64,000 bases of DNA from Candidatus Omnitrophota bacterium (GTDB lineage Bacteria; Omnitrophota; Gorgyraeia; Zapsychrales; Zapsychraceae): NCBI GenBank assembly GCA_029261065.1, contig JAJDCB010000029.1, positions 15,448-79,447 of the forward strand. Direction: 5' to 3'. The position numbers were made by a program, and so were the translations under genes. The notes beneath the pieces were generated by a model that made no database searches, was not told the origin of the DNA, and saw nothing but the letters and a program-made list of their open reading frames with translations. Positions 22,962 to 64,000 of the stretch are shown here, in pieces (the first letter of the stretch is position 1; each line of letters starts with the position of its first letter).

Positions 22962-23615
22962 ATGAATAAAAAAGACAATAAATTTAAATATGTCCTAGTC
23001 GAATTAGCCCATCATTTGCCTTATTCGATTTTTGGGGTAACGGTTGGGATCATTGCTATGGGGGTGTTGACGTTTTTTGCAACGCTGATGAAGGCTGAAG
23101 ATATGCTTCCGCATGCCTCTGAGGAACTCTTTCATGTGTTTCATCCTGCTCACGTTTTATTTAGTGCCGTTGCCACCACAGCGATGTTTTGGAAGCATGA
23201 GAAGAATATGATTAAAGCGATCATTATTGGATTTTTGGGATCCATTACGATATGCGGTATTAGCGATGTTTTTTTTCCATTTGCTGGTGGGCTCATTCTT
23301 GGTCAAGAGATGCATTTGCATGTTTGTATTCTAGAGGAGCCAGGGCTTGTGTTACCATTTGCCGTAGTCGGTGTGATCGCGGGACTTGCTGTGACCAAAA
23401 GTTTTGAGAAATCGACGGAATATTCCCATTCGGCGCATGTTTTTATTAGTAGTGCGGCATCCATTTTATATTTGTTAAGTTACGGTCTTCAAGATTGGAC
23501 TCATGCGGTAGGTGGCGTTTTTCTTGTCACTATCTTTGCTGTTATGATTCCTTGTTGCGCGAGTGATATTGCCCTTCCCATCTGCTGTGCGCACGTCAAT
23601 TGTGATCATGAATAA
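22962..23615 (+). CDS. His/Cys-rich polytopic membrane protein
   Basis: About 6 TM segments, several conserved-looking His (HHLPYS, HVFHPAH, HLHVC). C-terminus CCASDIALPICCAHVNCDHE. Its stop overlaps the hemC-fusion start (ATGAATAA). Confidence 0.35.
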   Translation: MNKKDNKFKYVLVELAHHLPYSIFGVTVGIIAMGVLTFFATLMKAEDMLPHASEELFHVFHPAHVLFSAVATTAMFWKHEKNMIKAIIIGFLGSITICGISDVFFPFAGGLILGQEMHLHVCILEEPGLVLPFAVVGVIAGLAVTKSFEKSTEYSHSAHVFISSAASILYLLSYGLQDWTHAVGGVFLVTIFAVMIPCCASDIALPICCAHVNCDHE

Positions 23616-44794: not shown

Positions 44795-44887
44795 GTATGG
44801 TTAGAACATTTGGGTTTCTGGTGCTTTTGTTATTTTGTGATATACTTATCCAAAAATATCAGATTTAAGAAAGAAAGGAATTAGGGA

Positions 44888-45247
44888 ATGGATATTCAAA
44901 TTAATACGTCAGAACGCCCTTGGGGGTATTACATAAAATTTTTACAAGAAGAAGGTGTTTGGGTTAAACGTGTGGAAGTTAAGCCTGGATGCCGGTTAAG
45001 CCTACAAAAACATGCTCATCGATCAGAAAAGTGGAATATTGTCACAGGCGTTGGTGTTGTCACCTTAGATGATCAAGAAATCCCAGTCAAAGCGGGATCC
45101 ATCATAGATGTCCCCTTAGGCGCTGTACACCGGATTGCCAATACAGGAGATTCAAAACTTGTATTTATTGAAGTCGCTTGCGGTGATGAATTATCCGAAG
45201 ATGACATTATTCGCATTCAGGACGATTATAATCGCGAAGATGCTTAA
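44888..45247 (+). CDS. cupin domain protein (mannose-6-phosphate isomerase type II C-terminal-like)
   Basis: Cupin motifs RLSLQKHAHRSEKWNIVTG and GAVHRIANTGDSKLVFIEV. Confidence 0.5.
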   Translation: MDIQINTSERPWGYYIKFLQEEGVWVKRVEVKPGCRLSLQKHAHRSEKWNIVTGVGVVTLDDQEIPVKAGSIIDVPLGAVHRIANTGDSKLVFIEVACGDELSEDDIIRIQDDYNREDA

Positions 45248-45372
45248 TCAGTAAGCATATTTAACAATTTTCTCCTTCCTCAATCAAGAATTAAGCTCAA
45301 AAGTTGCCTCATATCAAAAGTTTAGCATCTTTCCAAGATTAGGGTATAATAGTCTAACCTTAGGAAGATACT

Positions 45373-49499: not shown

Positions 49500-50888
49500 T
49501 TATTCTTTGCGTAAATGGGAGGGGAGGATATTTAGGTTTTGACGATATTTGCTAATGGTACGCCGGGCAATTTTCATGTCCTTCGATTCAAAATAATTTT
49601 GAATTTCTTGGTCAGAAAGAGGTTTGGATTTATTTTCATTCATGATTAAATCCTTTAATTCTTCTTTCATGCTTCTTGAAGAAATATCGCTATTAGCGCA
49701 TTTTGAGAGACCTTGTGAGAAGAAAAATTTTATGGGGAGTAGTCCGTGTGGGGTATCGATATATTTATTGTTTATTGCACGGCTGACGGTTGATTCATTG
49801 CGATCGATGGATTGGGCCACATCTCGAAGAACCATGGGTTTGATGGCAGTTGATCCTTGAAAAAAGAAGTCTCTTTGGTGCTCTAAGATGTAGTTTGCAA
49901 TGTTCTCGATAGTTTGATGACGTTGTTCAATGCTGCGTATAAACAATATTGCATTTTTAATTTTTTCTCTAATAAATTCTTGTTCTTCTTGAGTGCTATT
50001 GGGATTGTGAAGCATTCTTTGATAAATTTTGTTGATACGTAGTTGAGGAACATGTTTTTTGTTAATAGTGACAGTAAAGTTTTTGTTGTCTTCATTTTTT
50101 GTAATAATGATGTCTGGTTTAATGTAAATATTTTCCGTGATGGGACGAAAATTCCTCGCAGGTTTAGGTTCGAGGGAAGCAATAATCTCTGTGAGTTGTT
50201 TGACTTTTTCGATGGAGAGTTTTGTTTTTCTGGCAATATCAGCGTATTTTTTTTTGCTAATTTCAGTTAAAAATTCGGTAATAAGTTTGCTTAGCAAGAT
50301 GCTATTACCATTATATCGATAGAGAACTTGGTTAAGCAAACACTCTTGAAGATTGCGCGAGGCAATGCCTGGTGGATCGAAATTTTGAACTTTACTAAGA
50401 ATTTTCTCAACTAGTGTTATGTTATTGATGTGCAGGGTTTCATTAATCTCTTCACAACTCAATAATAAGTATCCTTCTTCGTTGAGGTTTCCGATTATAA
50501 ATTCTCCTATTTCTAATTCAATGGGATCATCACATTCAAATCGTAACTGCTCGAGCAAATAGTCTTCTAGGGGGGCGCTGCGTGTAATTGGCTTTTGTTC
50601 CATGATTTCATCATCAATGGTGCCATCATAAAAATTTTCAAAAGGGGACTCTTTGATCTGAGATATTCTTTGTTCTATGAGGGCATCAAGAGATTCTTTT
50701 TCAGATAACGTTTTTTCATCGTCAACTTCAAGAAGGGGGTTTTCTTGTAATTCTTGCTCTATGGCAGAGTTTAACTCCGTAATGGGTAGCAACAATATCT
50801 CTATAGATTGCTGCATAATAGGGGCAAGCGTTTGCTTTTGTATTTGTGAGGGCGATAATTTAATTCTCATATGCAAGAAGTATACCAT
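49500..50888 (-). CDS. rpoN: RNA polymerase sigma-54 factor
   Basis: Region I (LSPSQIQKQTLAPIMQQSIEILLLPITEL). Core binding region. C-terminal RpoN box ARRTISKYRQ. Alternative start at 50870 (MRIKL...). Confidence 0.8.
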   Translation of the reverse strand: MVYFLHMRIKLSPSQIQKQTLAPIMQQSIEILLLPITELNSAIEQELQENPLLEVDDEKTLSEKESLDALIEQRISQIKESPFENFYDGTIDDEIMEQKPITRSAPLEDYLLEQLRFECDDPIELEIGEFIIGNLNEEGYLLLSCEEINETLHINNITLVEKILSKVQNFDPPGIASRNLQECLLNQVLYRYNGNSILLSKLITEFLTEISKKKYADIARKTKLSIEKVKQLTEIIASLEPKPARNFRPITENIYIKPDIIITKNEDNKNFTVTINKKHVPQLRINKIYQRMLHNPNSTQEEQEFIREKIKNAILFIRSIEQRHQTIENIANYILEHQRDFFFQGSTAIKPMVLRDVAQSIDRNESTVSRAINNKYIDTPHGLLPIKFFFSQGLSKCANSDISSRSMKEELKDLIMNENKSKPLSDQEIQNYFESKDMKIARRTISKYRQNLNILPSHLRKE

Positions 50889-51308: not shown

Positions 51309-51324
51309 TGGCATGGTATTTGCT
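51309..51324 (+). promoter_or_regulatory. sigma-54 (-24/-12) promoter
   Basis: TGGCATG-GTAT-TTGCT versus consensus TGGCACG-N4-TTGCW. GG at 51310-11 and GC at 51322-23 with exact 10-nt spacing. Points toward the EPS locus; rpoN is the divergent neighbour. Confidence 0.6.
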
Positions 51325-51449: not shown

Positions 51450-51635
51450 GTGAAAAAGCGAATGACGATTACCGAAGTAGCAGAAATCGTTGGGATTAGT
51501 CCTAAAACGATTGTACGCTGGGAGAAGGTCGGAAAGGTCAAAAAGGCTAAGCGGGATTGGAGAGGCTGGCGAGTTTATGACGAAGAAGATCTACATGGAA
51601 TTAAATTGTTTCATGAAACAGTGTTTGAAATTTAA
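51450..51635 (+). CDS. small MerR/excisionase-type HTH protein (61 aa)
   Basis: MTITEVAEIVGISPKTIVRWEKVGKV HTH. GTG start 8 nt after AGGAGG. Confidence 0.5.
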   Translation: MKKRMTITEVAEIVGISPKTIVRWEKVGKVKKAKRDWRGWRVYDEEDLHGIKLFHETVFEI

Positions 51636-51668: not shown

Positions 51669-52487
51669 ATGAAAATACTTATAAATAGTATTAAAAATGT
51701 AAGAGTTCTTGTTTTAGCGGGTATGTTTGTAGCCCTTTCAACACATGTGACGAATGCTCAAAATTTTTCTAATTTGAAACCAACGGAAGATCAAGCTGCG
51801 TTGGATGAGCAAATCACACAACAAGAAATTGAACGGATTTTAGCAAATGAAATCTATAGCTCACCTAATACAGGTGAAGTTGGCATAGATTTTAGCGCGA
51901 TGAGCAACTACACGTTGGGAACTAATGATGTGATTGAAATAGCTGTATTAAGACATCCCGAAGTGAGTGGTCAGTATGTTTTAAATTCTGAAGGAAAAAT
52001 ACAATATGATTTTGTTGGAGATGTATCTTTGTCTGGATTAACAAAATCAAAATCAAAAGAAATTATAGCTGAGAAATTATCTTCTTATATTATTTCGCCA
52101 GAGGTGACAGTAAAGATTGTAGGGTATAACAGTAAAGTTGTTTATGTGATTGGTGAGGTTGGACGTCCAGGTAAGGTTTTTATGCGTGGAGATACGATTA
52201 CCGTCAAAGAAGCTCTTATGCAAGCAGGCCTTCCTTTATTATCTGCCAAGATGAAGAAAAGTTCGGTTGTGACACCTTCCGATTCTGGAAAAATGGAAGT
52301 TAAGCCTGTTAATGTACATAAATTGCTTGTAAAGGGTGACTTAAGAGAAAACTTAGTTATGAAGCCAGGTGATACTTTATATTTACCACCAACGGTTATG
52401 ACTAAAGTCATGAGAACGATATCACCTGTTGCTGCTCCTATTGGAACGGCTGCTGGGACTGGACGAACGCTTACGACTGGTTTTTAA
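51669..52487 (+). CDS. polysaccharide export protein (Wza/PEP-CTERM-locus exporter type)
   Basis: Signal peptide. Poly_export motif GTNDVIEIAVLRHPEVSGQYVLNSEGKIQYDFVGDVSLSGLT. SLBB-like region. Confidence 0.7.
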   Translation: MKILINSIKNVRVLVLAGMFVALSTHVTNAQNFSNLKPTEDQAALDEQITQQEIERILANEIYSSPNTGEVGIDFSAMSNYTLGTNDVIEIAVLRHPEVSGQYVLNSEGKIQYDFVGDVSLSGLTKSKSKEIIAEKLSSYIISPEVTVKIVGYNSKVVYVIGEVGRPGKVFMRGDTITVKEALMQAGLPLLSAKMKKSSVVTPSDSGKMEVKPVNVHKLLVKGDLRENLVMKPGDTLYLPPTVMTKVMRTISPVAAPIGTAAGTGRTLTTGF

Positions 52488-52534: not shown

Positions 52535-53818
52535 ATGCAATCTTCAGTTGAGAATACAGCAACACCAATGACTTATTTAAAAGTCTTTTTTAGGCGCAAA
52601 GAACTCGTTGTTATTCCTATGTTTGTTGGATTGGTTCTAGGTGTGTGTACAGGAATGACGTTACAAAAGAAATATCGTTCTTCCACTGTTATTTTGGTAG
52701 AAGAAGGAAAAAGTGATAATCCTCTTTTTGACAGGTTGGCTGTATCTACAACTGTTGGCCAAAGGCTTTCTACAATTCGTGAGTCTATGTTGGGTTGGAA
52801 TAGTTTGTTAAAGCTTGTTAAGAGATTAGATATGGATCGAGAAGTTGAAACGGCGCGTGATTTGGAAAATTTAGTTTTAGGGATTAGAAGTAATATCGAC
52901 ATTAAACTTCGTGGGCGTAATATTATCGATTTAGCCTATATGGGAGAAGATCCAGAGCTCACACAGGCTGTTGTTCAAAATATTACAGATATTTTCGTAG
53001 AACGAAATCGTGAGATTCAAGATGAAGAAACTAGTGACGCTATTACATTTATAGAAGAGCAATTAAAGGTGTATCGAGGTAAAGTTAAATCCGGAGAAAT
53101 TGCTGGATTAAAAGATCAGTTAAAGGTTCTTCTGGTTGATTCAACAGACAGTCATCCTCGTGTAAGGCAACTTCGAGAGCAAATAACGGCTAAAGAAAAA
53201 GAATTAAGAGAGCAAAATCTTGATTATACAGAAACGATTGCAGCAGAGTCTCAAAAGTCCAATCCTATTATAAGTGAAATCAAAAATGCTTTAGAAAATA
53301 TAGAAAGCAATTCTTCTTTAGGGAGCCAAGAAGATTCGGAAAAAGAATATTATAAGTTTATGTTAATCAATAAATTAGATAATGTTATGGCTCGTGATGC
53401 GAATGTTAATAATCAGATTTATAACATGCTTTTACAGCGATTGGAGACAGCAAAGATTACGCAACGTTTGCAGGCTTCAAAAGAAGGAACAAAATACACT
53501 GTCCTTGACCCACCCCGAATTCCACTACATCCTGTTAAGCCAAACAAAATATTAGTAGCTCTTTCAGGATTATTTCTTGGAGGCTTATTAGGATTTGGAT
53601 TAGTTTTTGCTACTGAATTTTTAGATAAGTCATTTCTAGATGTAGAAGAAGCCAATGAATATTTAGGTGCTCCACTGTTAGGTGCTATTTCAAAAATTAA
53701 TACAGACACAAGTCTAAAGGAAGCACGTGAGAAAGCTGGTTGGTTTTATGGGTTAACAGCAGTTGTAGGTGTTGTTGTAGTTGTTTTAACCAAGGCTATA
53801 TCAAATTTTATGCAATAA
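52535..53818 (+). CDS. polysaccharide chain-length determinant (Wzz/GumC-like)
   Basis: N-terminal TM, long coiled-coil periplasmic region, C-terminal TM. Proline-containing motif DPPRIPLHPVKPNK preceding TM2. Confidence 0.65.
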   Translation: MQSSVENTATPMTYLKVFFRRKELVVIPMFVGLVLGVCTGMTLQKKYRSSTVILVEEGKSDNPLFDRLAVSTTVGQRLSTIRESMLGWNSLLKLVKRLDMDREVETARDLENLVLGIRSNIDIKLRGRNIIDLAYMGEDPELTQAVVQNITDIFVERNREIQDEETSDAITFIEEQLKVYRGKVKSGEIAGLKDQLKVLLVDSTDSHPRVRQLREQITAKEKELREQNLDYTETIAAESQKSNPIISEIKNALENIESNSSLGSQEDSEKEYYKFMLINKLDNVMARDANVNNQIYNMLLQRLETAKITQRLQASKEGTKYTVLDPPRIPLHPVKPNKILVALSGLFLGGLLGFGLVFATEFLDKSFLDVEEANEYLGAPLLGAISKINTDTSLKEAREKAGWFYGLTAVVGVVVVVLTKAISNFMQ

Positions 53819-53857: not shown

Positions 53858-54709
53858 ATGTATCAAAACTTTTACGGATTTAAAGAGCCTCCATTTAACT
53901 TAACACCAAACTCAAAGTTTTTCTTTTCAAGCGAAAAACATACAGAGGCGTTAAGTACCTTATTATATGCTATTAACCAGAGAAAAGGTTTTGTAGTTAT
54001 AACAGGTCACATTGGTTCTGGAAAAACGACAGTATGTCGTGCGTTGATAAATCAACTTGATAAGAATACACAAACAGCGCTTATCACAAATACGCATATG
54101 AGCGGAAAAGATTTGTTGATGGCAATTTTGGAAGATTTGGAAGTTGATTTTGTTCCTGGCTCTAAATCGAAATTGCATTCTCAGCTAAATACTTATCTTA
54201 TTGAACAACTTCGTAGAAATAACAACGTGGTTCTTATCATTGATGAAGCTCAAAATTTGACGCCATCCGTATTAGAAGAGGTGCGAATGTTATCCAATTT
54301 AGAAACGGAGAATGAAAAGCTGATACAAATTCTTTTTATAGGACAACCTGAGCTAAAGAAAAAGTTGGCTCTTCCAAGGTTAGAACAGTTGCGTCAACGT
54401 ATAGCTGTTTATTTCCAGTTAACGCCTTTGGATTTCAAAGATGCTAAAAATTACATTTTGCATCGTCTTAAAGTAGCCAGTGGCAGCAATAAAGTTTTTT
54501 TTACGGATACGGCTATTGAAATGATTTATCAATTTTCAAAAGGGATTCCTCGTTTGATAAATCAAATATGCGACAGCGCATTTTTAACAGGGTATATCGC
54601 TGAGGTTAAGTTGATTGATGAGAAAATAATGGAAGAAGTTATTAATGAATCGCCTATGAAACAAATAGGTGGTAGAGAATTAGAGAACACAAACGAAATT
54701 TCCGTATAA
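53858..54709 (+). CDS. AAA ATPase, ExeA-like (TIGR03015 PEP-CTERM-locus secretion ATPase type)
   Basis: Walker A ITGHIGSGKTT. Walker B VVLIIDEAQNL. Confidence 0.65.
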   Translation: MYQNFYGFKEPPFNLTPNSKFFFSSEKHTEALSTLLYAINQRKGFVVITGHIGSGKTTVCRALINQLDKNTQTALITNTHMSGKDLLMAILEDLEVDFVPGSKSKLHSQLNTYLIEQLRRNNNVVLIIDEAQNLTPSVLEEVRMLSNLETENEKLIQILFIGQPELKKKLALPRLEQLRQRIAVYFQLTPLDFKDAKNYILHRLKVASGSNKVFFTDTAIEMIYQFSKGIPRLINQICDSAFLTGYIAEVKLIDEKIMEEVINESPMKQIGGRELENTNEISV

Positions 54710-54725: not shown

Positions 54726-55133
54726 ATGATGAAAAATTTTCCTATTGATAATCAGATGTTTTGGACAGATGAGTTAAGAGATGACGTATTTGAGTTATGG
54801 AGAACGTCCTTGATGTTTTTTAATAAAGCTTGTGAATTGACTAAACAATTTCCAAAAAACGTTCCTTTTGATATTGATATTCAAGTTCGGGAGGCGTCAT
54901 TTACAATTTCTGAAAAGATTGCTAAAGCATCAAAGGCCGATGACATTGAGATTTATCAGGATTACTTAATGGACTCTGTAGATGCTATTCATAATGCCTT
55001 AGCAAAAATGTATATTGCTAATAAATGGGGATACATGAGGCTTGACAATTATATTGAAACCCATAGTCAAGCAAGACGTTTGGCCGCTCAAATTAAAGAG
55101 TTGATGTGGTTTCATGGGTTACAAGTTGCTTAA
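54726..55133 (+). CDS. hypothetical protein (possible four-helix-bundle family)
   Basis: 135 aa, helical, no clear motif. Confidence 0.25.
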   Translation: MMKNFPIDNQMFWTDELRDDVFELWRTSLMFFNKACELTKQFPKNVPFDIDIQVREASFTISEKIAKASKADDIEIYQDYLMDSVDAIHNALAKMYIANKWGYMRLDNYIETHSQARRLAAQIKELMWFHGLQVA

Positions 55134-55158: not shown

Positions 55159-55761
55159 ATGAGTAAGATGTTGAAGTTATTACTAAAGACAAACAAAGAG
55201 ACGCAGATAGAGAAGAAAGATGCTCTTGTTTTAAATGAGGGTGCCGTGACTATCGCTCAGGCATCGTTGCAATCTAAAGGGTATTCTATAAATCATATTT
55301 CTTTTGTTTTTAATATTTTTATTGCGCTCATTGTTTTGCTGACATTTAAATCTAATTATCGCATTTTAGAACAATTATCTTCAAATCAGATTTCAGCATC
55401 ACAGATGCATGAAAACATTGCTTATCAAAAATCACAAATATTAAAAATGGAATCGAATCTTTTGGGGTTTGAAAATGAGAAAAAGACTAGTCAAAGAAGT
55501 ACAAATTTACGAATATCAGCTTTGAATGAAAAAGAAAAGATAATTGAAAATAATTTGAAAAATTTATCAAAGGACCAACGATTGACTAAAGATACAGCCA
55601 TGAATTTGAAATTATCCAATCAATTGCTGGTTACTAAGCTAACATCTGTAAATCAAGAACTTAAAGCATTAAGTCAAACATATGATGAGCAACAGGGAAG
55701 CCTTGAGCAATTGCATAAAAGGTTAACTCGATTGAGTGAGTCTAAGGAGGAGTTAGAATAA
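55159..55761 (+). CDS. coiled-coil protein with N-terminal TM anchor
   Basis: One hydrophobic helix (FVFNIFIALIVLLTF), then heptad-rich sequence. Confidence 0.3.
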   Translation: MSKMLKLLLKTNKETQIEKKDALVLNEGAVTIAQASLQSKGYSINHISFVFNIFIALIVLLTFKSNYRILEQLSSNQISASQMHENIAYQKSQILKMESNLLGFENEKKTSQRSTNLRISALNEKEKIIENNLKNLSKDQRLTKDTAMNLKLSNQLLVTKLTSVNQELKALSQTYDEQQGSLEQLHKRLTRLSESKEELE

Positions 55762-56549
55762 TGGGTAAAATAACTAAGGCACTAAAAAAGGCAACAGAAG
55801 ATAGGCTAGGGCGAATTGAAAAAATTACAAAAATAAAAGAAAGAGATCAACTCATTGTTAAAAAGATTGGTGAATCCGAAATTGATCCTAATATTGTTTC
55901 TTATTTTGATCCTAAAGCGCTAATATCAGAGCAATATAAAATATTAAGAACAAACATTCTTTCGATGAATAAGGGTAGACCTCCTAGAACTCTTGTTATC
56001 ACAAGTTCGATTCACTCTGAAGGAAAAACGGTGACATCGTTAAATTTGGCTTTCTCACTTGCTCAAGCGGTTCATAAACCTCGTGTCCTTTTGGTAGATG
56101 CGGATATGAGAAAGGGAAAGGTGTCAAGGTACTTAGGTGTAGATAATAAAGAAGGTTTATCTGAAGTCTTAAGTGGACAGCGTAAAGCGAGTGAAACATT
56201 ATTTCATATAGCAGATCAACCAAACTTAACATTTATGGATTCGGGATCAGTTCCTGAAAATCCATCAGAGTTACTTTCTTCAAATGAAATGAAAGAATTT
56301 ATCACAGAGATGGAATCAAACTATGATCATATACTTATAGATACACCACCCATTATTTCTGTAACTGACTCAGGCATTGTTGGAGCGATGGTTGATGGTG
56401 TCATTATGGTCATTCAAGCGGGACGTACTCAACGCGGTATTGTTAAACGAGCTGAAGAGCTTTTGTTTCAAGCGCATTCAAAAGTATTGGGACATGTATT
56501 AACAAACATTGAGTATCATTTACCTGAATATATATACAGGTACCTATAA
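55761..56549 (+). CDS. BY-kinase (exopolysaccharide tyrosine autokinase, cytoplasmic catalytic subunit)
   Basis: Walker A SSIHSEGKT. Walker A' VLLVDADMRKG. Walker B ILIDTPP. C-terminal Tyr cluster EYHLPEYIYRYL. Confidence 0.7.
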   Translation: MGKITKALKKATEDRLGRIEKITKIKERDQLIVKKIGESEIDPNIVSYFDPKALISEQYKILRTNILSMNKGRPPRTLVITSSIHSEGKTVTSLNLAFSLAQAVHKPRVLLVDADMRKGKVSRYLGVDNKEGLSEVLSGQRKASETLFHIADQPNLTFMDSGSVPENPSELLSSNEMKEFITEMESNYDHILIDTPPIISVTDSGIVGAMVDGVIMVIQAGRTQRGIVKRAEELLFQAHSKVLGHVLTNIEYHLPEYIYRYL

Positions 56550-56713: not shown

Positions 56714-57667
56714 ATGAAGAAGTTTTTAATTGCAGGTGGAGCAGGATTTATTGGGTCAAATATTGCAGAGTATCTTATAAAGGAAGGACATTATGTTAGA
56801 GTCTTAGATAATTTCTTTTCAGGTAAAGAAGAGAATCTTGATTTTGCTAAAGGTCTAGGAAAAGATAAATTTGAGCTTATTCGAGGTGACATTCGGGATA
56901 TAGATGCTTGTGAGAAAGCGTGTGAAGGTATTGATTATATTTCTCTTCAAGCTGCGTTACGTTCAGTACCTCAATCAATGGTTAATCCAGAAGATTATAA
57001 TGATGTGAACATCAATGGTGTTTTAACGATGTTAAAAGCAGCCTCTAAGAAGAAGGTGAAACGTCTTGTGTTTGCCTCTTCAAGTTCTGTTTATGGAGAT
57101 ACAGATAAGTTTCCACAAGTCGAATCTCATTATCCTCTTTTGATTTCTCCTTATGCGTTAAGTAAATTAGCAGGCGAGTACTATTGCCGTATTTTTTCAG
57201 AGCATTTTAATGTGGAAACAGTCTGTTTAAGATATTTTAACGTTTTTGGTCCTAAACAAGCATTAGATGATGAATATGCCGTTGTTGTGCCAAAGTTTAC
57301 ACACAGTATTTTAAACGATGAAAAACCACCCGTATTTGGAAATGGTGAACAATCACGGGATTTTACTTTTATTGAGAATGTTGTGTCAGCTAATGTTCTC
57401 GCAGCAACAACTCCCGGCATTAAACATGAAGTGTTTAATGTGGCAAATGGAAAAGACACATCAATTTTAGAACTCATCGCATCTTTAAATAAAATTATTG
57501 GAAAAAATATAGAGCCAAATTTGTTGCCGGTTCGTGCAGGTGATGTTTTTAAAACGCATGCTGATATTTCCAAGATTCAAGAAAAGCTTGGGTTTAAGGT
57601 TTTGTTTAATTTTGAGGAAGGCTTAGAGAAGACAGTAGCTTATTTTAAAGAAGCATTTGGAAAATAA
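56714..57667 (+). CDS. NAD-dependent sugar-nucleotide 4-epimerase (SDR; WbpP/GalE-like)
   Basis: GGAGFIGSN Rossmann motif. Catalytic YALSKLAGE. Confidence 0.75.
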   Translation: MKKFLIAGGAGFIGSNIAEYLIKEGHYVRVLDNFFSGKEENLDFAKGLGKDKFELIRGDIRDIDACEKACEGIDYISLQAALRSVPQSMVNPEDYNDVNINGVLTMLKAASKKKVKRLVFASSSSVYGDTDKFPQVESHYPLLISPYALSKLAGEYYCRIFSEHFNVETVCLRYFNVFGPKQALDDEYAVVVPKFTHSILNDEKPPVFGNGEQSRDFTFIENVVSANVLAATTPGIKHEVFNVANGKDTSILELIASLNKIIGKNIEPNLLPVRAGDVFKTHADISKIQEKLGFKVLFNFEEGLEKTVAYFKEAFGK

Positions 57668-58715
57668 AAAGCTATTGATTCATAAAACAAAAATGCAAGG
57701 CATGAAATCATTTATCAAATTGTGTGTTTGTTATGTGCTTTTTTATTCAGGAGCCATGCATTTATATATAAAAGGTGTCCTGTTAAAAAGAAATCGGTTT
57801 CCTGCTCTTATCATAAACTATCATAGCTTTGTAAAGAGTTTAGAGAACGTGATGGAGACACATCCAACAGTCACACATTTGATAGATGACTTTGAAAAAG
57901 AAGTCATCTTTCTTAAAAAATATTTTGATATTGTGTCTTTAAGTGAAGTTGTAGATACATTAAAAGAAGAAAAAGTGTTTTTAAAACCGACCATTGTCAT
58001 TACGGTTGATGACGGCTTTAAAGATAACTTTGATTTGCTTTTTCCTGTTTTAGAAAAACACAATATTTCTGTAACGATCTTTCTCTCAACTGGGGTTATT
58101 AATACGAATAAGCGATTGTGGGTTAATCGATTAGATCAAATGATTGGGCAAGCCAAAGGGGGAGAGCTTAATCTTAATAATTTGTTTAATAATCAGAGAT
58201 TTACGTTGCAGTCAGTAGATGAGAAACGAGAGGCCTATAAGCAAATAGTGGGTGCTTTAAAAGATGTCAAGATAGAACAGCGAGATGAAAGCCTTAAGGA
58301 CATTGAAAAACAGTTAGGTTCGCCTAATGAGAATAAGCCTTTAATGTTAAGTTGGGATGAGATAAAGCTGATGAATGAATCGCTTGTTGAGTTTGGAGCG
58401 CATACTGTTAACCATCCCATTTTAACAAGTGTATCTTTATCTGAAGCTCAGCAAGAAATATTTGATTCGAAGTTGGAAATTGAAAAACATCTTAAAAAAG
58501 AAGTTAAACATTTTGCCTTTCCAAATGGCCGGCCTCAGGATTTTTCGGAAGAATTAAGAGATTATTGCAAGGAAATAGGTTTTCAAAGTGTGAGTAGTTG
58601 TGATTTTGGAGTTAATATAAAAAAAGTTGATAATTTCAATCTTAAAAGAGTAGGATCTGAAGTTCCTATGAGTTTGTACGCGTTTAATGTTGTTCGTGTA
58701 TTTTCTAAAATTTGA
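57657..58715 (+). CDS. polysaccharide deacetylase (NodB-homology; PEP-CTERM-locus subfamily-like)
   Basis: TVDDGFKDNFD (NodB motif 1). HTVNHPIL (His motif). N-terminal signal-anchor. TTG start; alternative ATG at 57693. Confidence 0.6.
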   Translation: MENKKLLIHKTKMQGMKSFIKLCVCYVLFYSGAMHLYIKGVLLKRNRFPALIINYHSFVKSLENVMETHPTVTHLIDDFEKEVIFLKKYFDIVSLSEVVDTLKEEKVFLKPTIVITVDDGFKDNFDLLFPVLEKHNISVTIFLSTGVINTNKRLWVNRLDQMIGQAKGGELNLNNLFNNQRFTLQSVDEKREAYKQIVGALKDVKIEQRDESLKDIEKQLGSPNENKPLMLSWDEIKLMNESLVEFGAHTVNHPILTSVSLSEAQQEIFDSKLEIEKHLKKEVKHFAFPNGRPQDFSEELRDYCKEIGFQSVSSCDFGVNIKKVDNFNLKRVGSEVPMSLYAFNVVRVFSKI

Positions 58716-58731: not shown

Positions 58732-61053
58732 ATGAATATAAAAAGTCAAAAAAATAATGTTAGTGCTGTTGTTTTAGGAATGGGTGTGAATGGTCTTGGA
58801 GTGGTGCGCAGTTTATCGAAGGAAGGGGTTAAAGTCTATGCCTTTGATGAAGATAGAAATCAACCAGCCATGGCCACTTCTTTAGCTGTCGTTAAAGAAT
58901 GTCCTGATGTTAAACATCAAGCTAAGGCATTATTAACGTTTTTGATAGAGTTTTCAAAATCAGAAGGTAACTGTCCTGTCCTATTTCCATGCACTGATGC
59001 TCATAATGAGTTTCTTCATCGTTATCGTGATCAACTCAAAGAATATTTTCGATTTATTAACTCTGAGGATGAGGTGATGAAGAAATTGTTAGATAAAAAT
59101 GGTCAATATCAATTAGCACAAGAACATAATGTCGCAACAGCTAAAACTTTTAGTCCAAAGTCCATTGAAGAGATAGATGCCATTTCAAAAAAAATACAAT
59201 TTCCTGTGATTATTAAGGGTTTAAATCCTATGCCATGGAGAGCCGTTTTTGGAGATCAAAAGGTAATTGTTATTAAAAACGCAAAAGAGTTAACAGATGA
59301 ATATCTAAAATTATTTAAAACAAATTTACATACGGTTATACAAGAGATAATTGTTGGAGATGATACGCGGCATTATAAATTTTGTGCCTACATTAATAAA
59401 GATGGAAAGGCTCTTTTAACTTTTACTCTTCAAAAAGTAAGACAATTTCCGTGTCATTTTGGAATCGGTTCCTGTGTCGTAAGTGTATTTGAACCTGAGG
59501 TTGCTGAGAAAGGATTGCAGTTTATGCGTGATATGGGCTATCGAGGCATCGGTTCCATTGAGTTTAAGCGAGATAAGAGGGATGAAAAATTAAAGATGAT
59601 TGAGCTCAATGCTCGATTATGGGCTCAAAATAGTTTAGCGACGGCCTGTGGTCAAAATTATCCATGGGTTGCTTATCGTGATTTAATCGGAGAAGAAGTG
59701 CCTTTGAGTTCAAAGTTTAAAGAAGGCATTAAATGGATTGCCTCTAAAGAAGATCGGGCTTCCTTTTATGGTTATTTTAGGGAAGGGTCGATGAGTTTTA
59801 AAACATGGTTTAAAAGTTTTTGTACAGGGAGGAGAGTTTGGTCCTTATTTAATTGGGATGATCCAATGCCATTTTTAAAAGAGACTAAATTTGGATTTAT
59901 TGTGTTTATAAAGGTATTTAAAAAATTTATTGGGGTCTTTAACCAAAAGCAAACGAACAAAATAAATCAATTTGGAAATCTACATTTGCATGTGATTCAA
60001 GGTTGGGATGAGTTTTTTAGTTTACGTAAAGAATGGAATGATATTTTAGACAACAATCACATCTCAAATCCTTTTATAAGACATGAATGGTTATGTTCAT
60101 GGTGGAAAGGTTATGGGGCAGAGAAAAAAATGTACATTGTTAAATTTAGCGAAAATGGTCGAACTTTAGGTTTTGCGCCATTGATGAGATATAAAACAAA
60201 ATTATGCTCTTTTCCAACAGAAGCACTTGGATTTATTTCGAATCATTGGACTAGGATGGACTTTGTTATTGCTGATAAAGCTAAAGAATGCATGGAAAGT
60301 TTAGCTGAGCACATTAAATCTGAAAAATATATATGTATATTAGCTCAAATGGATTGCGAGGGTGAAAATGTTAATGTTTTGGAAAAGCAGCTAAAGAAAA
60401 ATAGAATTTCTTTTACTAAAGATGAAAAATTGCATGCTTATATTCCTGTAAAAGGGGCTTGGCGTGAATACTTTCAAAGTCAATCATCTAATTTTAGGAT
60501 GGATTCCAATAGGAAAATTAAACGATTAGAAAAGCAGGGTGAGATTGTTTTCTCAAGAGGGTTATCAAAAAATGGAACTTCTGTAGATAAAATAAGAGAA
60601 GTTGCTCAAAATTCTTGGCAATCAAGAGATAACGTGAATATCGTAACGACACCAGAAGGGCGCGTTTTTTATGATGAGATTATTAAGCAGTGGAAAGGCG
60701 AAGGTAGGCTTGATTTTTCTATTCTTGAAGTTGATGGAAAACCAATTTCCTATTTAGTAGGTGTGGAAAATGAAGGTTGCTACTATGCATTTGATACCGC
60801 GTATGATAAAGAGTTTCAGAAATTTTCTCCAGGACTAATTATGCATAATCATATTCTTAAGAATACATTTGATAAGGGCTTGAAAAAATTTGATTTTGGC
60901 TATAACGCTAGTTATAAAAAGCGTTGGTCAGAAGAACAAATAGAGATGTTAGACATAACTGTTTTTCCTAAGACATTGGGAGGACAGTTTTTTTTAATTT
61001 TGAATACAATAAAAAGATTTATTAAACGAAGAAAGGAAGAACGTATATGTTAA
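58732..61053 (+). CDS. fusion: ATP-grasp ligase domain / FemAB-CelD-like (TIGR03019-type) acyltransferase domain
   Basis: N-terminal about 380 aa with ATP-grasp pattern (FPVIIKGLNP, IQEIIVGDD, ELNARLW). C-terminal about 370 aa with FemAB/CelD-like motifs (WDEFFSLRKEWNDIL...NPFIRHEWL, FDFGYN). Confidence 0.55.
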   Translation: MNIKSQKNNVSAVVLGMGVNGLGVVRSLSKEGVKVYAFDEDRNQPAMATSLAVVKECPDVKHQAKALLTFLIEFSKSEGNCPVLFPCTDAHNEFLHRYRDQLKEYFRFINSEDEVMKKLLDKNGQYQLAQEHNVATAKTFSPKSIEEIDAISKKIQFPVIIKGLNPMPWRAVFGDQKVIVIKNAKELTDEYLKLFKTNLHTVIQEIIVGDDTRHYKFCAYINKDGKALLTFTLQKVRQFPCHFGIGSCVVSVFEPEVAEKGLQFMRDMGYRGIGSIEFKRDKRDEKLKMIELNARLWAQNSLATACGQNYPWVAYRDLIGEEVPLSSKFKEGIKWIASKEDRASFYGYFREGSMSFKTWFKSFCTGRRVWSLFNWDDPMPFLKETKFGFIVFIKVFKKFIGVFNQKQTNKINQFGNLHLHVIQGWDEFFSLRKEWNDILDNNHISNPFIRHEWLCSWWKGYGAEKKMYIVKFSENGRTLGFAPLMRYKTKLCSFPTEALGFISNHWTRMDFVIADKAKECMESLAEHIKSEKYICILAQMDCEGENVNVLEKQLKKNRISFTKDEKLHAYIPVKGAWREYFQSQSSNFRMDSNRKIKRLEKQGEIVFSRGLSKNGTSVDKIREVAQNSWQSRDNVNIVTTPEGRVFYDEIIKQWKGEGRLDFSILEVDGKPISYLVGVENEGCYYAFDTAYDKEFQKFSPGLIMHNHILKNTFDKGLKKFDFGYNASYKKRWSEEQIEMLDITVFPKTLGGQFFLILNTIKRFIKRRKEERIC

Positions 61054-61823
61054 TGCCATTATTTAAATATCGAGATTTATTAGCAATGCTTGTGGTGCGT
61101 GATATACGCGTGAGATATAAGCAGGCGGCGATGGGGTTTATGTGGGCCATTTTTATGCCTATGGTTGCTGTGTTAGCAGGTATTATCGTAAAAAAGGCAA
61201 TGGCCGTTATCTCGGGAGGTGATTTAGAACTTTTAGGAATTGTTTCTATGTCGGTTAAGATATTGCCATGGACATTTTTCTCAAGTGCTATTCGTTTTTC
61301 AGTTTCAAGTTTGGTGTCTAACAGTAATCTTGTTACCAAAATATATTTTCCAAGAGAGGTTCTTCCCTTAGGAGCGATCTTGGCTTGTACGTTTGATTTT
61401 CTAGTAGCTATTTTAGTTCTTTGTGTCCTTTTAACGATGGCACAGGTTGGTGTGAGTATACAGCTCTTGTGGTTGCCTTTTATCTTTCTTATGCTGTTTT
61501 GTTTAACAGCGGGATTAGGGTTTTTGTTGGCCGCGGCTAACTTGTTTTTTAGGGATGTAAAATATATTGTTGAGATCATTTTAACGTTTGGTATCTTTTT
61601 TACTCCTGTATTTTATAGCTCGGATGAATTAGGGCAATACGGTATATTTATGTTACTCAATCCCATTGGAAGTATATTAGAATCAATTAGTCAAGTTGTT
61701 GTCCTTAAGCAAGCTCCAGATATGTTGTGGCTTTTATATTCTTCTGTTTGTTCGATAGCCATATTTATTTTTGGGTTTATTATTTTTAAAAAGAAAGAAT
61801 CTGTATTCGCTGAGAATATTTAA
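61047..61823 (+). CDS. ABC-2 type polysaccharide exporter permease (Wzm-like)
   Basis: 6 TM segments, ABC-2 pattern. Overlaps the upstream gene by 7 nt. Confidence 0.7.
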   Translation: MLMPLFKYRDLLAMLVVRDIRVRYKQAAMGFMWAIFMPMVAVLAGIIVKKAMAVISGGDLELLGIVSMSVKILPWTFFSSAIRFSVSSLVSNSNLVTKIYFPREVLPLGAILACTFDFLVAILVLCVLLTMAQVGVSIQLLWLPFIFLMLFCLTAGLGFLLAAANLFFRDVKYIVEIILTFGIFFTPVFYSSDELGQYGIFMLLNPIGSILESISQVVVLKQAPDMLWLLYSSVCSIAIFIFGFIIFKKKESVFAENI

Positions 61824-61864: not shown

Positions 61865-63109
61865 ATGAAATATGCAATAGAATTTAATCATGCATGGAAG
61901 AAGTTTAAAAAAGGGGAGAAATTTGATTCTCTTCGAGATGCCGTGCCGAACTTTTTTAAAAATATTATTAAACCAAAAAAATCTACTGAGGATTTAACTG
62001 ATCGTGAATTCTGGGCTGTGCGCGATGTCGATTTTCAGGTCAAAAAGGGAGAGGTTGTTGGGATTATTGGTCCAAATGGTGCTGGTAAAAGTACAATCTT
62101 AAAGATGCTCTCAGGGATCCTTATTCCTAATAAAGGTGACATGAAAATACACGGTCGGCTTTCTGCCCTTATTGAGGTAACAGCGGGATTTCACCCAGAA
62201 TTAACGGGTCGGGAAAATGTTTATCTCAATGGAACTATTTTGGGTATGAAGAAAAAGGAATTAGATGCCAAGTTTGAAGATATTGTTGAGTTCTCAGGCA
62301 TAAGAGAATTTATCGACACACCTGTTAAACGTTATTCTTCGGGGATGTATTCCCGTTTAGGTTTTTCCGTTGCGGCTCATGTTAATCCTGATGTATTGCT
62401 TGTTGATGAAGTTTTAGCCGTTGGTGACATCTCCTTTCAGGCGAAATGCGCACAAAAAATGCGTGAGATGTTAAAAAGTGGCGTCACAATTGCGATTGTT
62501 TCTCATAGCTTACCGCTGATTCAAAGTTTATGCGAACGTGTTATTTTAATTGATAAGGGGCAAGTGCTCAAGGAAGGAAGTCCAGAGGAAGTAATTCCGT
62601 TTTATGAAAAGATTGTTTTTAATCAACAAGAAGAAGAGCTTAAGAATAAACTAAAAAAATCGACCTTTAAGGTTGCACCAACAGACAATAAGCCTTTAAT
62701 TACCATTAATAAAGTTGATATAATTGATGGAAAAGGTGAATCAAAAGATGACTTTCCTTTTGGCTCAAATTTAACAATAAATGTGGAATATAATGCCGAT
62801 AAGAAAATTGAAAAACCAGTATTCTCTTTAGTCCTTTTTCGCTCAGATGGCGTTGTATGTTTTGAATCTGATACAAAACGCAGAGGGGTGTCTGTTGAAA
62901 GTATTGAAGGAAAGGGTAAATATATTGCCCAATTAGGTGAGCTTAAGTTGTCACCTGGAATTTATATTCTTCAGCTATCTATTCTTGATAGAGATTTGGT
63001 CCATCCGTATGTCATTAGGAAAGAAGATGTTTTTAAAATTGAAACAGACAGTGTTCACAAACAAACATCCTCCGTGTTTTGGAAGGATGTTGAGTGGAGA
63101 ATGAATTAA
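61865..63109 (+). CDS. ABC transporter ATP-binding protein (Wzt-like, with C-terminal substrate-binding extension)
   Basis: Walker A GPNGAGKST. Signature YSSGMYSRLGFS. Walker B LLVDEVLAVGD. About 170-aa C-terminal beta-rich extension. Confidence 0.75.
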   Translation: MKYAIEFNHAWKKFKKGEKFDSLRDAVPNFFKNIIKPKKSTEDLTDREFWAVRDVDFQVKKGEVVGIIGPNGAGKSTILKMLSGILIPNKGDMKIHGRLSALIEVTAGFHPELTGRENVYLNGTILGMKKKELDAKFEDIVEFSGIREFIDTPVKRYSSGMYSRLGFSVAAHVNPDVLLVDEVLAVGDISFQAKCAQKMREMLKSGVTIAIVSHSLPLIQSLCERVILIDKGQVLKEGSPEEVIPFYEKIVFNQQEEELKNKLKKSTFKVAPTDNKPLITINKVDIIDGKGESKDDFPFGSNLTINVEYNADKKIEKPVFSLVLFRSDGVVCFESDTKRRGVSVESIEGKGKYIAQLGELKLSPGIYILQLSILDRDLVHPYVIRKEDVFKIETDSVHKQTSSVFWKDVEWRMN

Positions 63110-63122
63110 GAAAGTAAGTCTT

Positions 63123-64000
63123 ATGCATAAAGTTAAATATATTCATCATCATATCAAGCATCATTCAAATCATTCGGGTTACAATCGAATTTTGGATTAT
63201 GTGGATAATGATTTTAAAAGAGATGGTTTTGTTGAGAAAATATATCGAAAAATTCCCTACAAGGTTAAAGATATATTTTTAAAGAAATCGCAGGTGAAAT
63301 GGTATAACGTTGAGCGATTATTAAATGAAACAATAGTAATGAGTAAGGGACTAGGTTTATCAAAAGAGGTATACCATTTTCTTTATGGTGATGATTCTTA
63401 TTGTTTTTCAGGTATGACACCTCGACTTTCAAATAAGAAGTTGGTTGCCACTTTTCATCAGCCACCAAAGTTGTTTGATGAATTTATAAAGCGTAAAAAT
63501 CATATTCAAGCTCTAGATGCTGTCATTGTAGTTGGTTCGAACTTAAAGGAACATCTTCAAAAGATTACGGGTAAAGATAATGTCTATGTTGTTCCTCATG
63601 GTATAGATTTAGAGTTTTTTAAACCTCTAGAAGATGAAAATCGTTTTAAGGAAAAGAGATGTTTGTTTGTTGGACAATGGCTAAGGGATTTTGAGACGTT
63701 AGTTAGGGTTATTGAGATTGTTAACAAGAATTCTTTAGATGTTCATTTTGATGTTGTTAGCTTTGAAGATAAAAAATCACATTTTGAAAATTTTAACAAT
63801 GTCACATTTTATTCATCTACTGAAGAGTCAAAACTATTAGAACTTTATCAGAAAGCCTCTTTACTCGTATTGCCATTAACCGATTGTACGGCCAATAATT
63901 CTGTTTTAGAAGCCATGGCTTGTGGATTGCCCATTTTGACAACAAGAGTGGGTGGGGTTATGGATTATGTGGATGAACATTGTGCAGCCCTTACTGATCC
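63123..64000 (+). CDS. glycosyltransferase family 4 (GT-B), truncated at window end
   Basis: ORF open to the window edge. C-terminal ...EAMACGLPILTTRVGGVMDYVDE matches the GT4 E-X7-E region. Confidence 0.5.
   Translation, partial: MHKVKYIHHHIKHHSNHSGYNRILDYVDNDFKRDGFVEKIYRKIPYKVKDIFLKKSQVKWYNVERLLNETIVMSKGLGLSKEVYHFLYGDDSYCFSGMTPRLSNKKLVATFHQPPKLFDEFIKRKNHIQALDAVIVVGSNLKEHLQKITGKDNVYVVPHGIDLEFFKPLEDENRFKEKRCLFVGQWLRDFETLVRVIEIVNKNSLDVHFDVVSFEDKKSHFENFNNVTFYSSTEESKLLELYQKASLLVLPLTDCTANNSVLEAMACGLPILTTRVGGVMDYVDEHCAALTD

Follow-up and report, generated by a model that had tools for sequence, protein, structure and literature searches.

An ATP-grasp ligase fused to a FemX-like tandem-GNAT transferase: part of a candidate glycan-editing module in a surface-polysaccharide operon of Candidatus Omnitrophota

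Introduction

Why should an ATP-dependent ligase and a tandem-GNAT transferase be joined in one polypeptide, encoded directly behind a polysaccharide deacetylase and directly in front of a glycan exporter? The question is raised by a stretch of 64,000 nucleotides from Candidatus Omnitrophota bacterium (GenBank assembly GCA_029261065.1, contig JAJDCB010000029.1, positions 15,448 to 79,447 of the forward strand), which was analysed whole and is called the window here; coordinates are window positions unless another locus is named. An open reading frame (ORF) at 58732..61053 on the + strand encodes a protein of 773 residues, in which an initial annotation saw an ATP-grasp ligase fused to a FemAB/CelD-like domain and, together with the neighbouring deacetylase, a sign of amino-acid or peptide decoration of an exopolysaccharide (EPS). 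Among bacterial polysaccharides, many are decorated with N-linked amino acids, N-acyl-aminoacyl groups or peptides and, to our knowledge, the responsible enzymes are not known for most of these decorations. We describe the fusion, the gene set to which it belongs and the family of its ligase half, and put at about an even chance the reading, drawn from sequence, that the fusion and the neighbouring deacetylase swap N-acetyl for amino-acid groups on a cell-surface polysaccharide before its export.

Results

A single chain joins two enzymes

The fusion ORF begins with ATG, contains no internal stop and runs as one continuous gene. A 2.3-kb ORF in DNA of 34% G+C that yields two independent significant domain matches is far beyond chance. 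An exact copy of the fusion gene appears among the gene calls of a Logan contig assembled from run SRR15505515; it probably comes from the same sample and is therefore not independent confirmation. Seven fused proteins, the query included, passed a search of 5.8 billion clustered proteins, the six relatives being 39–50% identical. In all, eight distinct fused proteins (39–50% identical), from different samples and sources, hold one frame through a linker of similar length. Hence, the fusion is a genuine single-chain joining of two enzymes.

The ATP-grasp domain accounts for residues 1–403 (58732..59940, +), with homology beginning at about residue 8, and the tandem-GNAT Acetyltransf_6 domain for residues 412–773 (59965..61053, +, with the stop codon). 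Between them lies a flexible linker of approximately residues 403–411 (59938..59964, +), which coincides with the split point in homologues encoded by two genes. The full-length AlphaFold2 model, built with 26 homologues, has a mean predicted local distance difference test score (pLDDT) of 90, and its sole internal stretch below 50 is formed by residues 403–409. The predicted template modelling score (pTM) is 0.57; the halves are confidently folded, their mutual packing is not. No transmembrane segment is predicted in the fusion protein. Amphipathic-helix analysis of residues 383–400 and 749–769 gave only moderate hydrophobic moments, and to attach the protein to the membrane through these helices would be speculation.

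The N-terminal half has the signatures of an ATP-grasp ligase

Pfam CPSase_L_D2, an ATP-grasp family, matches the N-terminal half with 34–37 bits against a gathering score of 19.8. Residues 16–331 also align to NCBIfam PRK12767-type 'carbamoyl phosphate synthase-like' models (E 3.5e-14), at scores so far under the curated cutoffs that the alignment is evidence at the level of the superfamily only. Among PDB sequences, phmmer returned 2pn1, a structural-genomics ATP-grasp protein, and biotin carboxylase. Foldseek against the PDB returned biotin carboxylase, PurK, carbamoyl phosphate synthase and 2pn1 at E ~1e-15, with a target-normalised TM-score of 0.79 for 2pn1. The modelled ATP-grasp fold has pLDDT values above 90 over residues 10–380.

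The catalytic apparatus can be traced residue by residue. E277, E291, N293 and R295 fall on the VEF...MEMNTR Mg/ATP motif of biotin carboxylase and K162 falls on its VLIK lysine. K122, K162, E205, E277, E291, N293 and R295 are invariant across all seven aligned fused homologues, and the conserved ATP-binding lysines, hinge Glu, Mg-binding Glu/Glu/Asn and catalytic Arg of the ATP-grasp superfamily are all present. These signatures identify the N-terminal half as a predicted ATP-grasp carboxylate–amine ligase with intact ATP and Mg ligands and catalytic motifs. In ATP-grasp catalysis a carboxylate is first converted to its acyl phosphate, which an amine then attacks. A TupA-like identity for the domain, the type found in Cj1438C, was considered and rejected, that family being absent among the Pfam matches to residues 1–400 at E <= 10.

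The C-terminal half is modelled as a FemX-like tandem GNAT

Pfam Acetyltransf_6 (PF13480) matches residues 586–729 with an E-value of 1.9e-25; the score is 90.1 bits, the cutoff being 22, and the alignment takes in 142 of the 143 model positions. Homologues are named 'CelD/BcsL family acetyltransferase' by JGI (COG5653, CelD/BcsL class). Since the Foldseek list for the full-length model is dominated by the ATP-grasp half, the C-terminal half was modelled and searched separately. The model of residues 406–773 (pLDDT 89.6, pTM 0.85) is a tandem GNAT. Its first-ranking PDB matches are FemX of S. aureus and W. viridescens (6snr, 7z6a, 1ne9), Sbb17 and Sba18 bound to the amino sugar streptothrisamine, and the C-terminal domains of MprF, at E-values of 7e-11 to 1e-8 and TM-scores of 0.52–0.58. 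The ten best PDB matches listed are all aminoacyl-tRNA-dependent transferases. Most tandem GNATs that use acyl-CoA (VipF, Eis-like proteins, 2wpw, MAB_4324) rank lower, with TM-scores of 0.35–0.50, and MshD is absent among the 50 matches listed for this model. The ranking points to the tandem-GNAT fold of the FemABX proteins, with a substrate cleft between the two domains.

Invariant positions of this half are R589, K595, K597, S699-P700-G701, Y728-K729 and K761. The first three lie on a conserved and basic helix (residues 586–602). Likened by description, this helix and Y728-K729 resemble the tRNA-binding helix and F304-K305 of FemX (PMC12945691). The lysine equivalent to K729 is retained in an Azospirillum homologue at 22% identity. 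From the model, we regard the C-terminal half as a tandem-GNAT transferase of Pfam Acetyltransf_6 with a FemX/MprF-like fold.

The initial annotation was right about the single continuous frame, which eight distinct fused proteins keep, and about the ATP-grasp domain, for which Pfam, PDB sequence matches, structure comparison and invariant ligands agree. Its label for the second domain, 'FemAB/CelD-like (PEP-CTERM-locus)', stands in part. The domain is of the Acetyltransf_6, CelD/BcsL class, but the fusion has no match to Pfam FemAB (PF02388) at E <= 10, and membership of TIGR03019 (FemAB, XrtA/PEP-CTERM) is rejected by a score of 13.3 bits against a cutoff of 260.35.

The conserved unit is a gene set

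The gene directly upstream (57693..58715, +) encodes a predicted NodB-type polysaccharide de-N-acetylase (Polysacc_deac_1, PF01522; E 1.7e-20, 73.7 bits), as the initial annotation had claimed, and 16 nt separate its stop codon from the start of the fusion. The listed ORF opens at TTG 57657, where it overlaps the end of the preceding epimerase gene; the gene caller on the overlapping contig L001 uses ATG 57693, 36 nt downstream, which is likely the true start. The motifs TVDDG (D106-D107), HTVNH (H237/H241) and FAFPNG are present, and a catalytic His of motif 5 was not identified in the protein. The Pfam match, together with the motifs for the catalytic Asp and the Asp-His-His metal triad, places the protein among the NodB-type (CE4) enzymes. 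Its best NCBIfam matches are PgaB and IcaB, below cutoff. At the N terminus, a single, borderline hydrophobic helix precedes a K/R cluster.

Directly downstream, a gene for a Wzm ABC-2 permease (61047..61823, +; ABC2_membrane, 39 bits) overlaps the end of the fusion by 7 nt. It is followed by the gene for a Wzt ABC ATPase (61865..63109, +; ABC_tran, 79 bits) with a C-terminal carbohydrate-binding domain (Wzt_C; E 5e-15, 56 bits against a cutoff of 30). Wzm and a Wzt bearing Wzt_C mark ABC-transporter-dependent glycan export.

With the window proteins as queries, tblastn found the order deacetylase, ATP-grasp, GNAT, Wzm, Wzt in five related loci (L003, L007, L008, L009 and L011), where it is usually preceded by rpoN on the − strand and by genes for Wza, a polysaccharide co-polymerase (PCP), an ATPase and a kinase. 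The order is the same in L002 (GCA_054037615.1), with Wzm inside the same ORF, and L005 retains ATP-grasp, GNAT and Wzm on a contig too short to show a deacetylase. Every related locus with enough flank is syntenic for the five genes, and the glycosyltransferase sets downstream vary among loci. The genome records that hold these loci are metagenome-assembled genomes of Candidatus Omnitrophota or are named 'uncultured Planctomycetales', and one stand-alone homologue is named in Omnitrophica genomes.

Within this set, the junction between the two halves changes from locus to locus. In L011, the most similar genomic locus fetched (53%), the halves are split by a TAA stop and a new ATG follows 20 nt later in another frame. 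In L007 a stop is followed by ATG within a few bases, in L005 a spacer of ~280 nt separates the halves and in L009 1.3 kb is inserted between them. Eleven stand-alone GNAT homologues (34–50% identity) were found, and a neighbour-joining tree built from GNAT domains, without bootstrap, intermingles fused with solo proteins. Since the halves are separate in several close relatives and the two forms are mixed in the tree, the gene set, not the fusion, is the conserved unit. Judged from these sequences, the fusion is one state of an evolutionarily labile pair of adjacent genes, not a unique invention.

The claim of the initial annotation that this exact fusion is non-standard is correct in so far as literature searches found no paper describing the fusion or the module and no biochemical data for either clade. 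It needs qualifying because of the separate halves and interspersed forms. The fused architecture is already in databases under generic names, both domains are from known superfamilies and amino-acid decoration of glycans is already known.

The 1,109-residue gene call of L002 (10001–13330; P0005) joins ATP-grasp, GNAT and Wzm through a G/R-rich low-complexity spacer of ~100 residues, with an internal Met at the expected Wzm start. We rejected it as a functional triple fusion and excluded it from the evidence, as it is probably the product of read-through or of a lost stop codon across the spacer.

The ATP-grasp family recurs with sugar N-deacetylases

An exhaustive HMMER search of 1.84 billion representatives returned 1,279 proteins at E <= 1e-30, mostly stand-alone ATP-grasps of ~400 residues. 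Fusion partners were read from the top 150 of these matches by domain mapping and Pfam. Acetyltransf_6 follows the ATP-grasp domain in P0018, P0051, P0067, P0154 and P0161, and the order is reversed in P0128. Polysacc_deac_1 is fused to it in both orders (P0023, P0030, P0039, P0043, P0092 and P0164), and glycosyltransferases of families GT4 or GT2 are the partners in P0072, P0083 and P0112. The remaining partners are a second ATP-grasp (seven proteins), an ordinary GNAT (P0042 and P0055) and a 2-hydroxyacid dehydrogenase (P0037).

Gene neighbourhoods extend these links. On plasmid pBM600 of Priestia megaterium QM B1551 (L018 6986–11180, BMQ_RS26615–26630), an operon encodes a PIG-L deacetylase, a GT4 glycosyltransferase, an ATP-grasp and an APH/EcKL-type kinase. 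Its ATP-grasp, named 'carbamoyl-phosphate synthase', is 34.6% identical to the window domain, and the family is thereby linked also to a sugar N-deacetylase of unrelated fold. A metagenomic Wzx/Wzy locus holds several ATP-grasps, two NodB deacetylases and one Acetyltransf_6 protein; the 17 kb of it that were fetched show no ABC transporter. In a Bradyrhizobium glycan locus the ATP-grasp is paired with a DegT aminotransferase. On a plasmid of Azospirillum ramasamyi (L021 6570–9017, DM194_RS13530/13535), a 414-residue Acetyltransf_6 gene stands directly before an ATP-grasp homologue, the reverse of the window order.

Spore-coat protein genes are near the pBM600 operon, which is repeated across 37 Priestia plasmid records and has the layout of bacillithiol/mycothiol-like logic.

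Discussion

A possible route to N-acyl editing

The deacetylase, the ATP-grasp and the GNAT may form a three-enzyme glycan-editing module within a surface-polysaccharide operon, a reading of the sequences for which we see the balance of probability as roughly level. The repeated association of the ATP-grasp, in direct fusions as well as in operons, with two unrelated classes of sugar N-deacetylase argues that it acts on the amine exposed by de-N-acetylation. From the domain identities, the intact catalytic motifs, the conserved linkage and the recurrent fusions we infer an order of steps, an acceptor, a carboxylate and an acyl donor. In the cytoplasm, the deacetylase would strip N-acetyl from an amino sugar while the glycan is nascent or lipid-linked, and so leave a free amine. 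The ATP-grasp would activate a free carboxylate, most simply that of an amino acid, as an acyl phosphate and ligate it to the exposed sugar amine. The tandem GNAT would then either add a further residue from aminoacyl-tRNA, in the manner of FemX and Orf11, or cap the new amine from acyl-CoA, in the manner of MshD, and Wzm/Wzt would export the edited glycan.

All of these steps are placed in the cytoplasm because the fusion needs ATP and is without a transmembrane segment, and because relatives fuse deacetylase domains to ATP-grasp. Such a location agrees with a pathway of the ABC-transporter-dependent kind, where export follows completion of the glycan. Of the initial proposal of amino-acid or peptide decoration of the EPS, the functional link between the enzymes has gained from the conserved gene order and the recurrent fusions. 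The chemistry is still something we infer, since the fusion sequence does not reveal which carboxylate or which acyl donor is used.

Several observations weigh against N-acyl editing with amino acids. Neither this ATP-grasp clade nor the close clade of Acetyltransf_6 proteins has a member of known substrate. The domains do not pack confidently against each other in the full-length model (pTM 0.57), so that nothing supports substrate channelling. In sequence there is no similarity to FemX: TM-scores reach just 0.55–0.58 at 10–13% identity, the Pfam FemAB match is lacking at the threshold given above, and a profile search with the GNAT-domain alignment recovered no FemX or other PDB relative, only a spurious plant kinase match. 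The correspondence of the Tyr-Lys and Phe-Lys pairs is a putative one, drawn from the published description of FemX. There is a sub-threshold match to BspF, described by NCBIfam as a crotonyl transferase, and HfsK, the one relative for which functional data turned up, is without a demonstrated donor, which makes an acyl-CoA donor equally possible. We know of no demonstration that any member of the Acetyltransf_6 (CelD/BcsL) class uses aminoacyl-tRNA.

Gene context supplies further points on this side. The Azospirillum pair is followed by a metallophosphoesterase and a 5'-nucleotidase and has no obvious polysaccharide context. The distant stand-alone ATP-grasp P0011 adjoins CbiA-like genes, a non-glycan setting, and the contexts of P0011, P0012 and P0015 as a group are uninformative or not glycan-related. 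In the window itself, the adjoining TviC-like epimerase offers an alternative carboxylate, that of a uronic acid.

More tentatively, the combination of deacetylase, ATP-grasp and FemX-like GNAT might represent a widespread and undescribed N-acyl-editing pathway that installs amino-acid or short-peptide side chains on the amino sugars of surface polysaccharides, a counterpart on exopolysaccharide of peptidoglycan-style side-chain chemistry. In the window it may act at the chain terminus, with a peptide cap serving as the termination or export signal for Wzt. The module supplies concrete enzyme candidates for the amino-acid decoration of polysaccharides, drawn from a large ATP-grasp clade that is recurrently tied to sugar N-deacetylases, FemX-like GNATs and glycosyltransferases. 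Should the N-acyl-editing model hold, a function would be gained for a large 'carbamoyl-phosphate synthase-like'/COG3919 group and for part of the Acetyltransf_6 (CelD/BcsL, probably HfsK) group. It would also show whether tRNA-dependent chemistry serves exopolysaccharides, and would shed light on the surface of Omnitrophota cells, which are uncultured and ultra-small. Priestia and Azospirillum can be cultured, and their homologous operons make the question testable.

Alternative explanations

An unlikely alternative assigns the two halves to separate reactions. The ATP-grasp would activate the C6 carboxylate of a hexuronic acid, for example GalNAcA formed through the TviC-like epimerase, and, like Cj1438C, attach an amino acid or an amino alcohol to it as an amide, and the GNAT would independently re-acylate the amine freed by the deacetylase. 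The gene two places upstream of the fusion (56714..57667, +) encodes an SDR sugar-nucleotide epimerase (Epimerase, E 6e-57) whose best match is TviC, a UDP-GlcNAcA 4-epimerase (NF011728, 230 bits, below the cutoff of 760), and homologues occupy the same position in L007, L009 and L011. Amidation of capsule glucuronate by an ATP-grasp amidoligase is established biochemistry (PMC11800379), and the ATP-grasp–glycosyltransferase fusions of the family mirror the glycosyltransferase–ATP-grasp architecture of Cj1438. The window domain, however, has no match to TupA-like ATP-grasp, the family of Cj1438C, even at E <= 10. The stretches fetched for L002 and L003, which retain the module, gave no TviC-like gene, nor did that of L008, which includes only ~2 kb upstream of the deacetylase. 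There is no UDP-GlcNAc dehydrogenase among the window genes examined. Moreover, the fusions and operon links to two unrelated classes of sugar N-deacetylase point to a freed amine, not to a uronate.

A narrower version of N-acyl editing, a special case that we hold to be quite improbable, confines the module to the non-reducing terminal residue, where it would make a cap that is recognised by the C-terminal domain of Wzt and acts as a WbdD-like terminator or export signal. In E. coli O9a the terminator gene adjoins wzm-wzt and Wzt_C binds the cap, and NodB, NodA and NodIJ are a precedent for editing of a terminal residue. The window fits this pattern in that the fusion overlaps wzm by 7 nt, Wzt has a Wzt_C domain, and deacetylase, ATP-grasp, GNAT, Wzm and Wzt are kept together as glycosyltransferase sets vary. 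The Wzt homologues of L002 and L009, on the other hand, align over the nucleotide-binding domain only, so the putative cap reader is not uniformly conserved with the module. The set of ATP-grasp, deacetylase and Acetyltransf_6 also occurs in the Wzx/Wzy-type locus described above.

It is very unlikely that the ATP-grasp/GNAT pair is a passenger of the operon that makes or modifies a small molecule, a lipid or a protein, for instance by MprF-like lipid aminoacylation or in the synthesis of a peptide metabolite. The C-terminal domains of MprF are indeed among the structural matches and some homologues lie outside glycan loci. Yet the pair sits between deacetylase and Wzm in every close relative with enough flank, overlaps the start of Wzm in the window, and has family members fused to glycosyltransferases and polysaccharide deacetylases.

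Finally, an artefactual fusion, in which a sequencing or assembly error erased a stop codon or frameshift between two genes, is scarcely credible: several close relatives, including L011, do encode the halves separately, a stop codon and a fresh start lying between them, and the sole second copy of the exact sequence is probably from the same sample, but the eight distinct fused proteins from different samples hold one frame through a linker of similar length and more distant fusions exist in both domain orders.

Comparison with known systems

The proposed N-acyl editing module has partial counterparts among characterised systems. In the Nod-factor pathway, NodB removes N-acetyl from the terminal sugar of a chito-oligosaccharide; the resulting amine is N-acylated by NodA, and the molecule leaves the cell through the ABC-2 pair NodIJ. 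The window would share with this system a NodB-type cytoplasmic deacetylase that frees a sugar amine, N-acylation of that amine and ABC-2-type export; NodI is among the NCBIfam matches of the window Wzt. NodA, by contrast, is an unrelated acyltransferase that attaches a fatty acid taken from acyl-ACP, whereas the window has an ATP-grasp and a tandem GNAT. The window genes would act on a polysaccharide served by Wza/PCP export machinery, where the Nod substrate is a chito-oligosaccharide signal.

In mycothiol and bacillithiol synthesis, the MshB/BshB deacetylase, the ATP-dependent Cys ligase MshC and the tandem-GNAT acetyltransferase MshD carry out a series of reactions resembling the one proposed here, with de-N-acetylation of a GlcNAc derivative, ATP-driven ligation of an amino acid to the sugar amine and action of a tandem GNAT on the new amine. 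The Priestia operon of PIG-L, GT4 and ATP-grasp shares this gene logic. The enzymes differ in kind, MshB being of PIG-L/LmbE type and not NodB, and MshC being related to aminoacyl-tRNA synthetases and not to ATP-grasp; the products are small thiols and no polymers.

For the tandem GNAT the closest structural parallels are FemX and the other FemABX proteins, and the group of Orf11, Sba18 and Sbb17. Orf11, a homologue of Sbb17 and Sba18, glycylates the amino-sugar amine of streptothrisamine from Gly-tRNA (PMC12945691). These proteins have the tandem-GNAT fold and give the best structural matches, and the window domain has an invariant aromatic–Lys pair and a basic helix. Unlike them, it belongs to Acetyltransf_6 and not to FemAB, with no detectable sequence homology to them, and their substrates are peptidoglycan precursors or antibiotics.

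An adjacent FemAB-like/ATP-grasp pair (CDR20291_0244 and 0245) occurs in a glycan locus of C. difficile, the type-B flagellin locus, where knockout of the ATP-grasp gene abolishes a terminal peptidylamido sugar and the FemAB-like gene could not be mutated (PMC5207246). There, the two are separate genes of other Pfam families (FemAB, PF02388, and ATP-grasp_4), the amine of the sugar is supplied by an aminotransferase and not by a deacetylase, and the target is a protein O-glycan. In Caulobacter, the deacetylase HfsH and the FemX-like tandem GNAT HfsK act in one holdfast pathway (PMC5362036), again a polysaccharide deacetylase with a FemX-like tandem GNAT, here for an adhesive polysaccharide. 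HfsK function depends on a basic C-terminal extension, and the window domain ends in a basic amphipathic helix. The Caulobacter pair has no ATP-grasp partner, unlike the window, and HfsK is regulated by c-di-GMP. Cj1438C (PMC11800379) resembles the fusion in that an ATP-grasp is joined to another glycan enzyme; it creates an amide linkage on a sugar of the capsule, in a pathway that depends on an ABC transporter. It differs in activating a glucuronate carboxylate, in its ATP-grasp subfamily and in its partner, a GT2 glycosyltransferase and not a GNAT.

The operon and its setting

From 51450 to the window end all genes read on the + strand; one gap measures 164 nt and the others −7 to 47 nt. 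Their order is small helix-turn-helix (HTH) gene, Wza-like gene, chain-length determinant, AAA ATPase, four-helix-bundle gene, coiled-coil ORF, tyrosine kinase, TviC-like epimerase, deacetylase, fusion, Wzm, Wzt and glycosyltransferases. The first gene (51450..51635, +) encodes a putative MerR/excisionase-like HTH protein of 61 residues, and a MerR/HTH_17 gene of 60–66 residues stands at the same position in L002 and L003. It is followed by genes for a predicted Wza-like outer-membrane polysaccharide export protein (51669..52487, +; Poly_export and SLBB_2; TIGR03027 at 94 bits, below the cutoff of 180), a polysaccharide co-polymerase or chain-length determinant (52535..53818, +; GNVR and Wzz; TIGR03007 at 243 bits, below 279) and an AAA_22 ATPase resembling the XrtA-associated ATPase (53858..54709, +; TIGR03015 at 297 bits, below 324.5). 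A polysaccharide tyrosine autokinase with a stand-alone kinase domain is encoded at 55761..56549 (+; TIGR01007 at 165 bits, above the cutoff of 108).

Between the ATPase and kinase genes lie a gene for a four-helix-bundle '23S rRNA intervening-sequence protein' (54726-55133, +; TIGR02436 at 28.9 bits against a cutoff of 24) and a coiled-coil-like ORF of 200 residues (55159-55761, +); tblastn found neither in any related locus. L003 has an intervening-sequence-protein-family gene of its own and a PDDEXK_3 gene, and these flank its kinase gene. At the other end of the operon, a run of glycosyltransferase genes begins with a GT4 member by sequence reading (63123..64000, +), which runs past the window end. 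The run extends for at least 8 kb, and gene calls and Pfam on the overlapping contig L001 give the order GT4, GT4, a gene without an assigned family, GT2, GT2, GT4, GT4.

A sigma-54-type −24/−12 promoter-like element, TGGCATGGTATTTGCT (TGGCAT-N5-TTGCT; 51309..51324, +), has one mismatch to the consensus and adjoins the divergent rpoN gene (49500-50888, −). Equivalent elements lie 270–460 nt upstream of the Wza homologue in L002 (4209), L003 (1162), L007 (3249) and L011 (2800). The elements in these four related loci and the adjoining rpoN suggest that the whole locus is RpoN-dependent. A scan of the operon for sigma-70 promoters and terminators did no better than on shuffled sequence.

EPS loci of the PEP-CTERM/XrtA type are RpoN-dependent in other bacteria (PMC9850573). 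They share with the window a FemAB-related protein and a deacetylase in a locus with a chain-length determinant, an ATPase and a tyrosine kinase, and the window has the sigma-54-type element. The best or near-best matches of the neighbouring genes are XrtA-associated models, all below cutoff, among them TIGR03018 at 147 against 231 bits. The window deacetylase differs from theirs in having no PEP-CTERM subfamily match, and export in the window is by Wzm/Wzt. A regex scan of the 64-kb window gave no convincing PEP-CTERM tail, and no exosortase was seen among the scanned window genes or in the 8 kb downstream, a scan that left outside 13 of the 50 window ORFs of at least 150 residues and the rest of the genome. 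By these sequence matches the locus resembles PEP-CTERM-type EPS loci and cannot be filed as one.

Other genes in the window

Upstream of the operon, a glycosyltransferase gene (43796-44794, +) has a sub-threshold match to the PEP-CTERM/XrtA glycosyltransferase model TIGR03088 (102 against 409 bits), and a sensor histidine kinase gene (45373-47007, +) has a weak PrsK-like match (100 against 300 bits). Near these lie genes for a diguanylate cyclase (37953-39401) and an ArnT-like transferase (39494-40951, −). The genes at 43796-47007 and those near them may be regulatory or accessory to the EPS locus.

Further upstream, a beta-CASP metallo-beta-lactamase ribonuclease gene (21176-22576, +) matches a 'type VII CRISPR-associated Cas14' model with 406 bits against a cutoff of 800, and also aCPSF1-like RNases. 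A single ORF of 697 residues (23563-25656, +) appears to join hydroxymethylbilane synthase, uroporphyrinogen-III C-methyltransferase and uroporphyrinogen-III synthase; hemB and hemL follow it, forming a compact tetrapyrrole cluster. The gene at 35434-37842 (+) encodes an 802-residue protein that matches NF037959, a family of MFS/spermidine-synthase fusions, with 90 bits, above the cutoff of 40.

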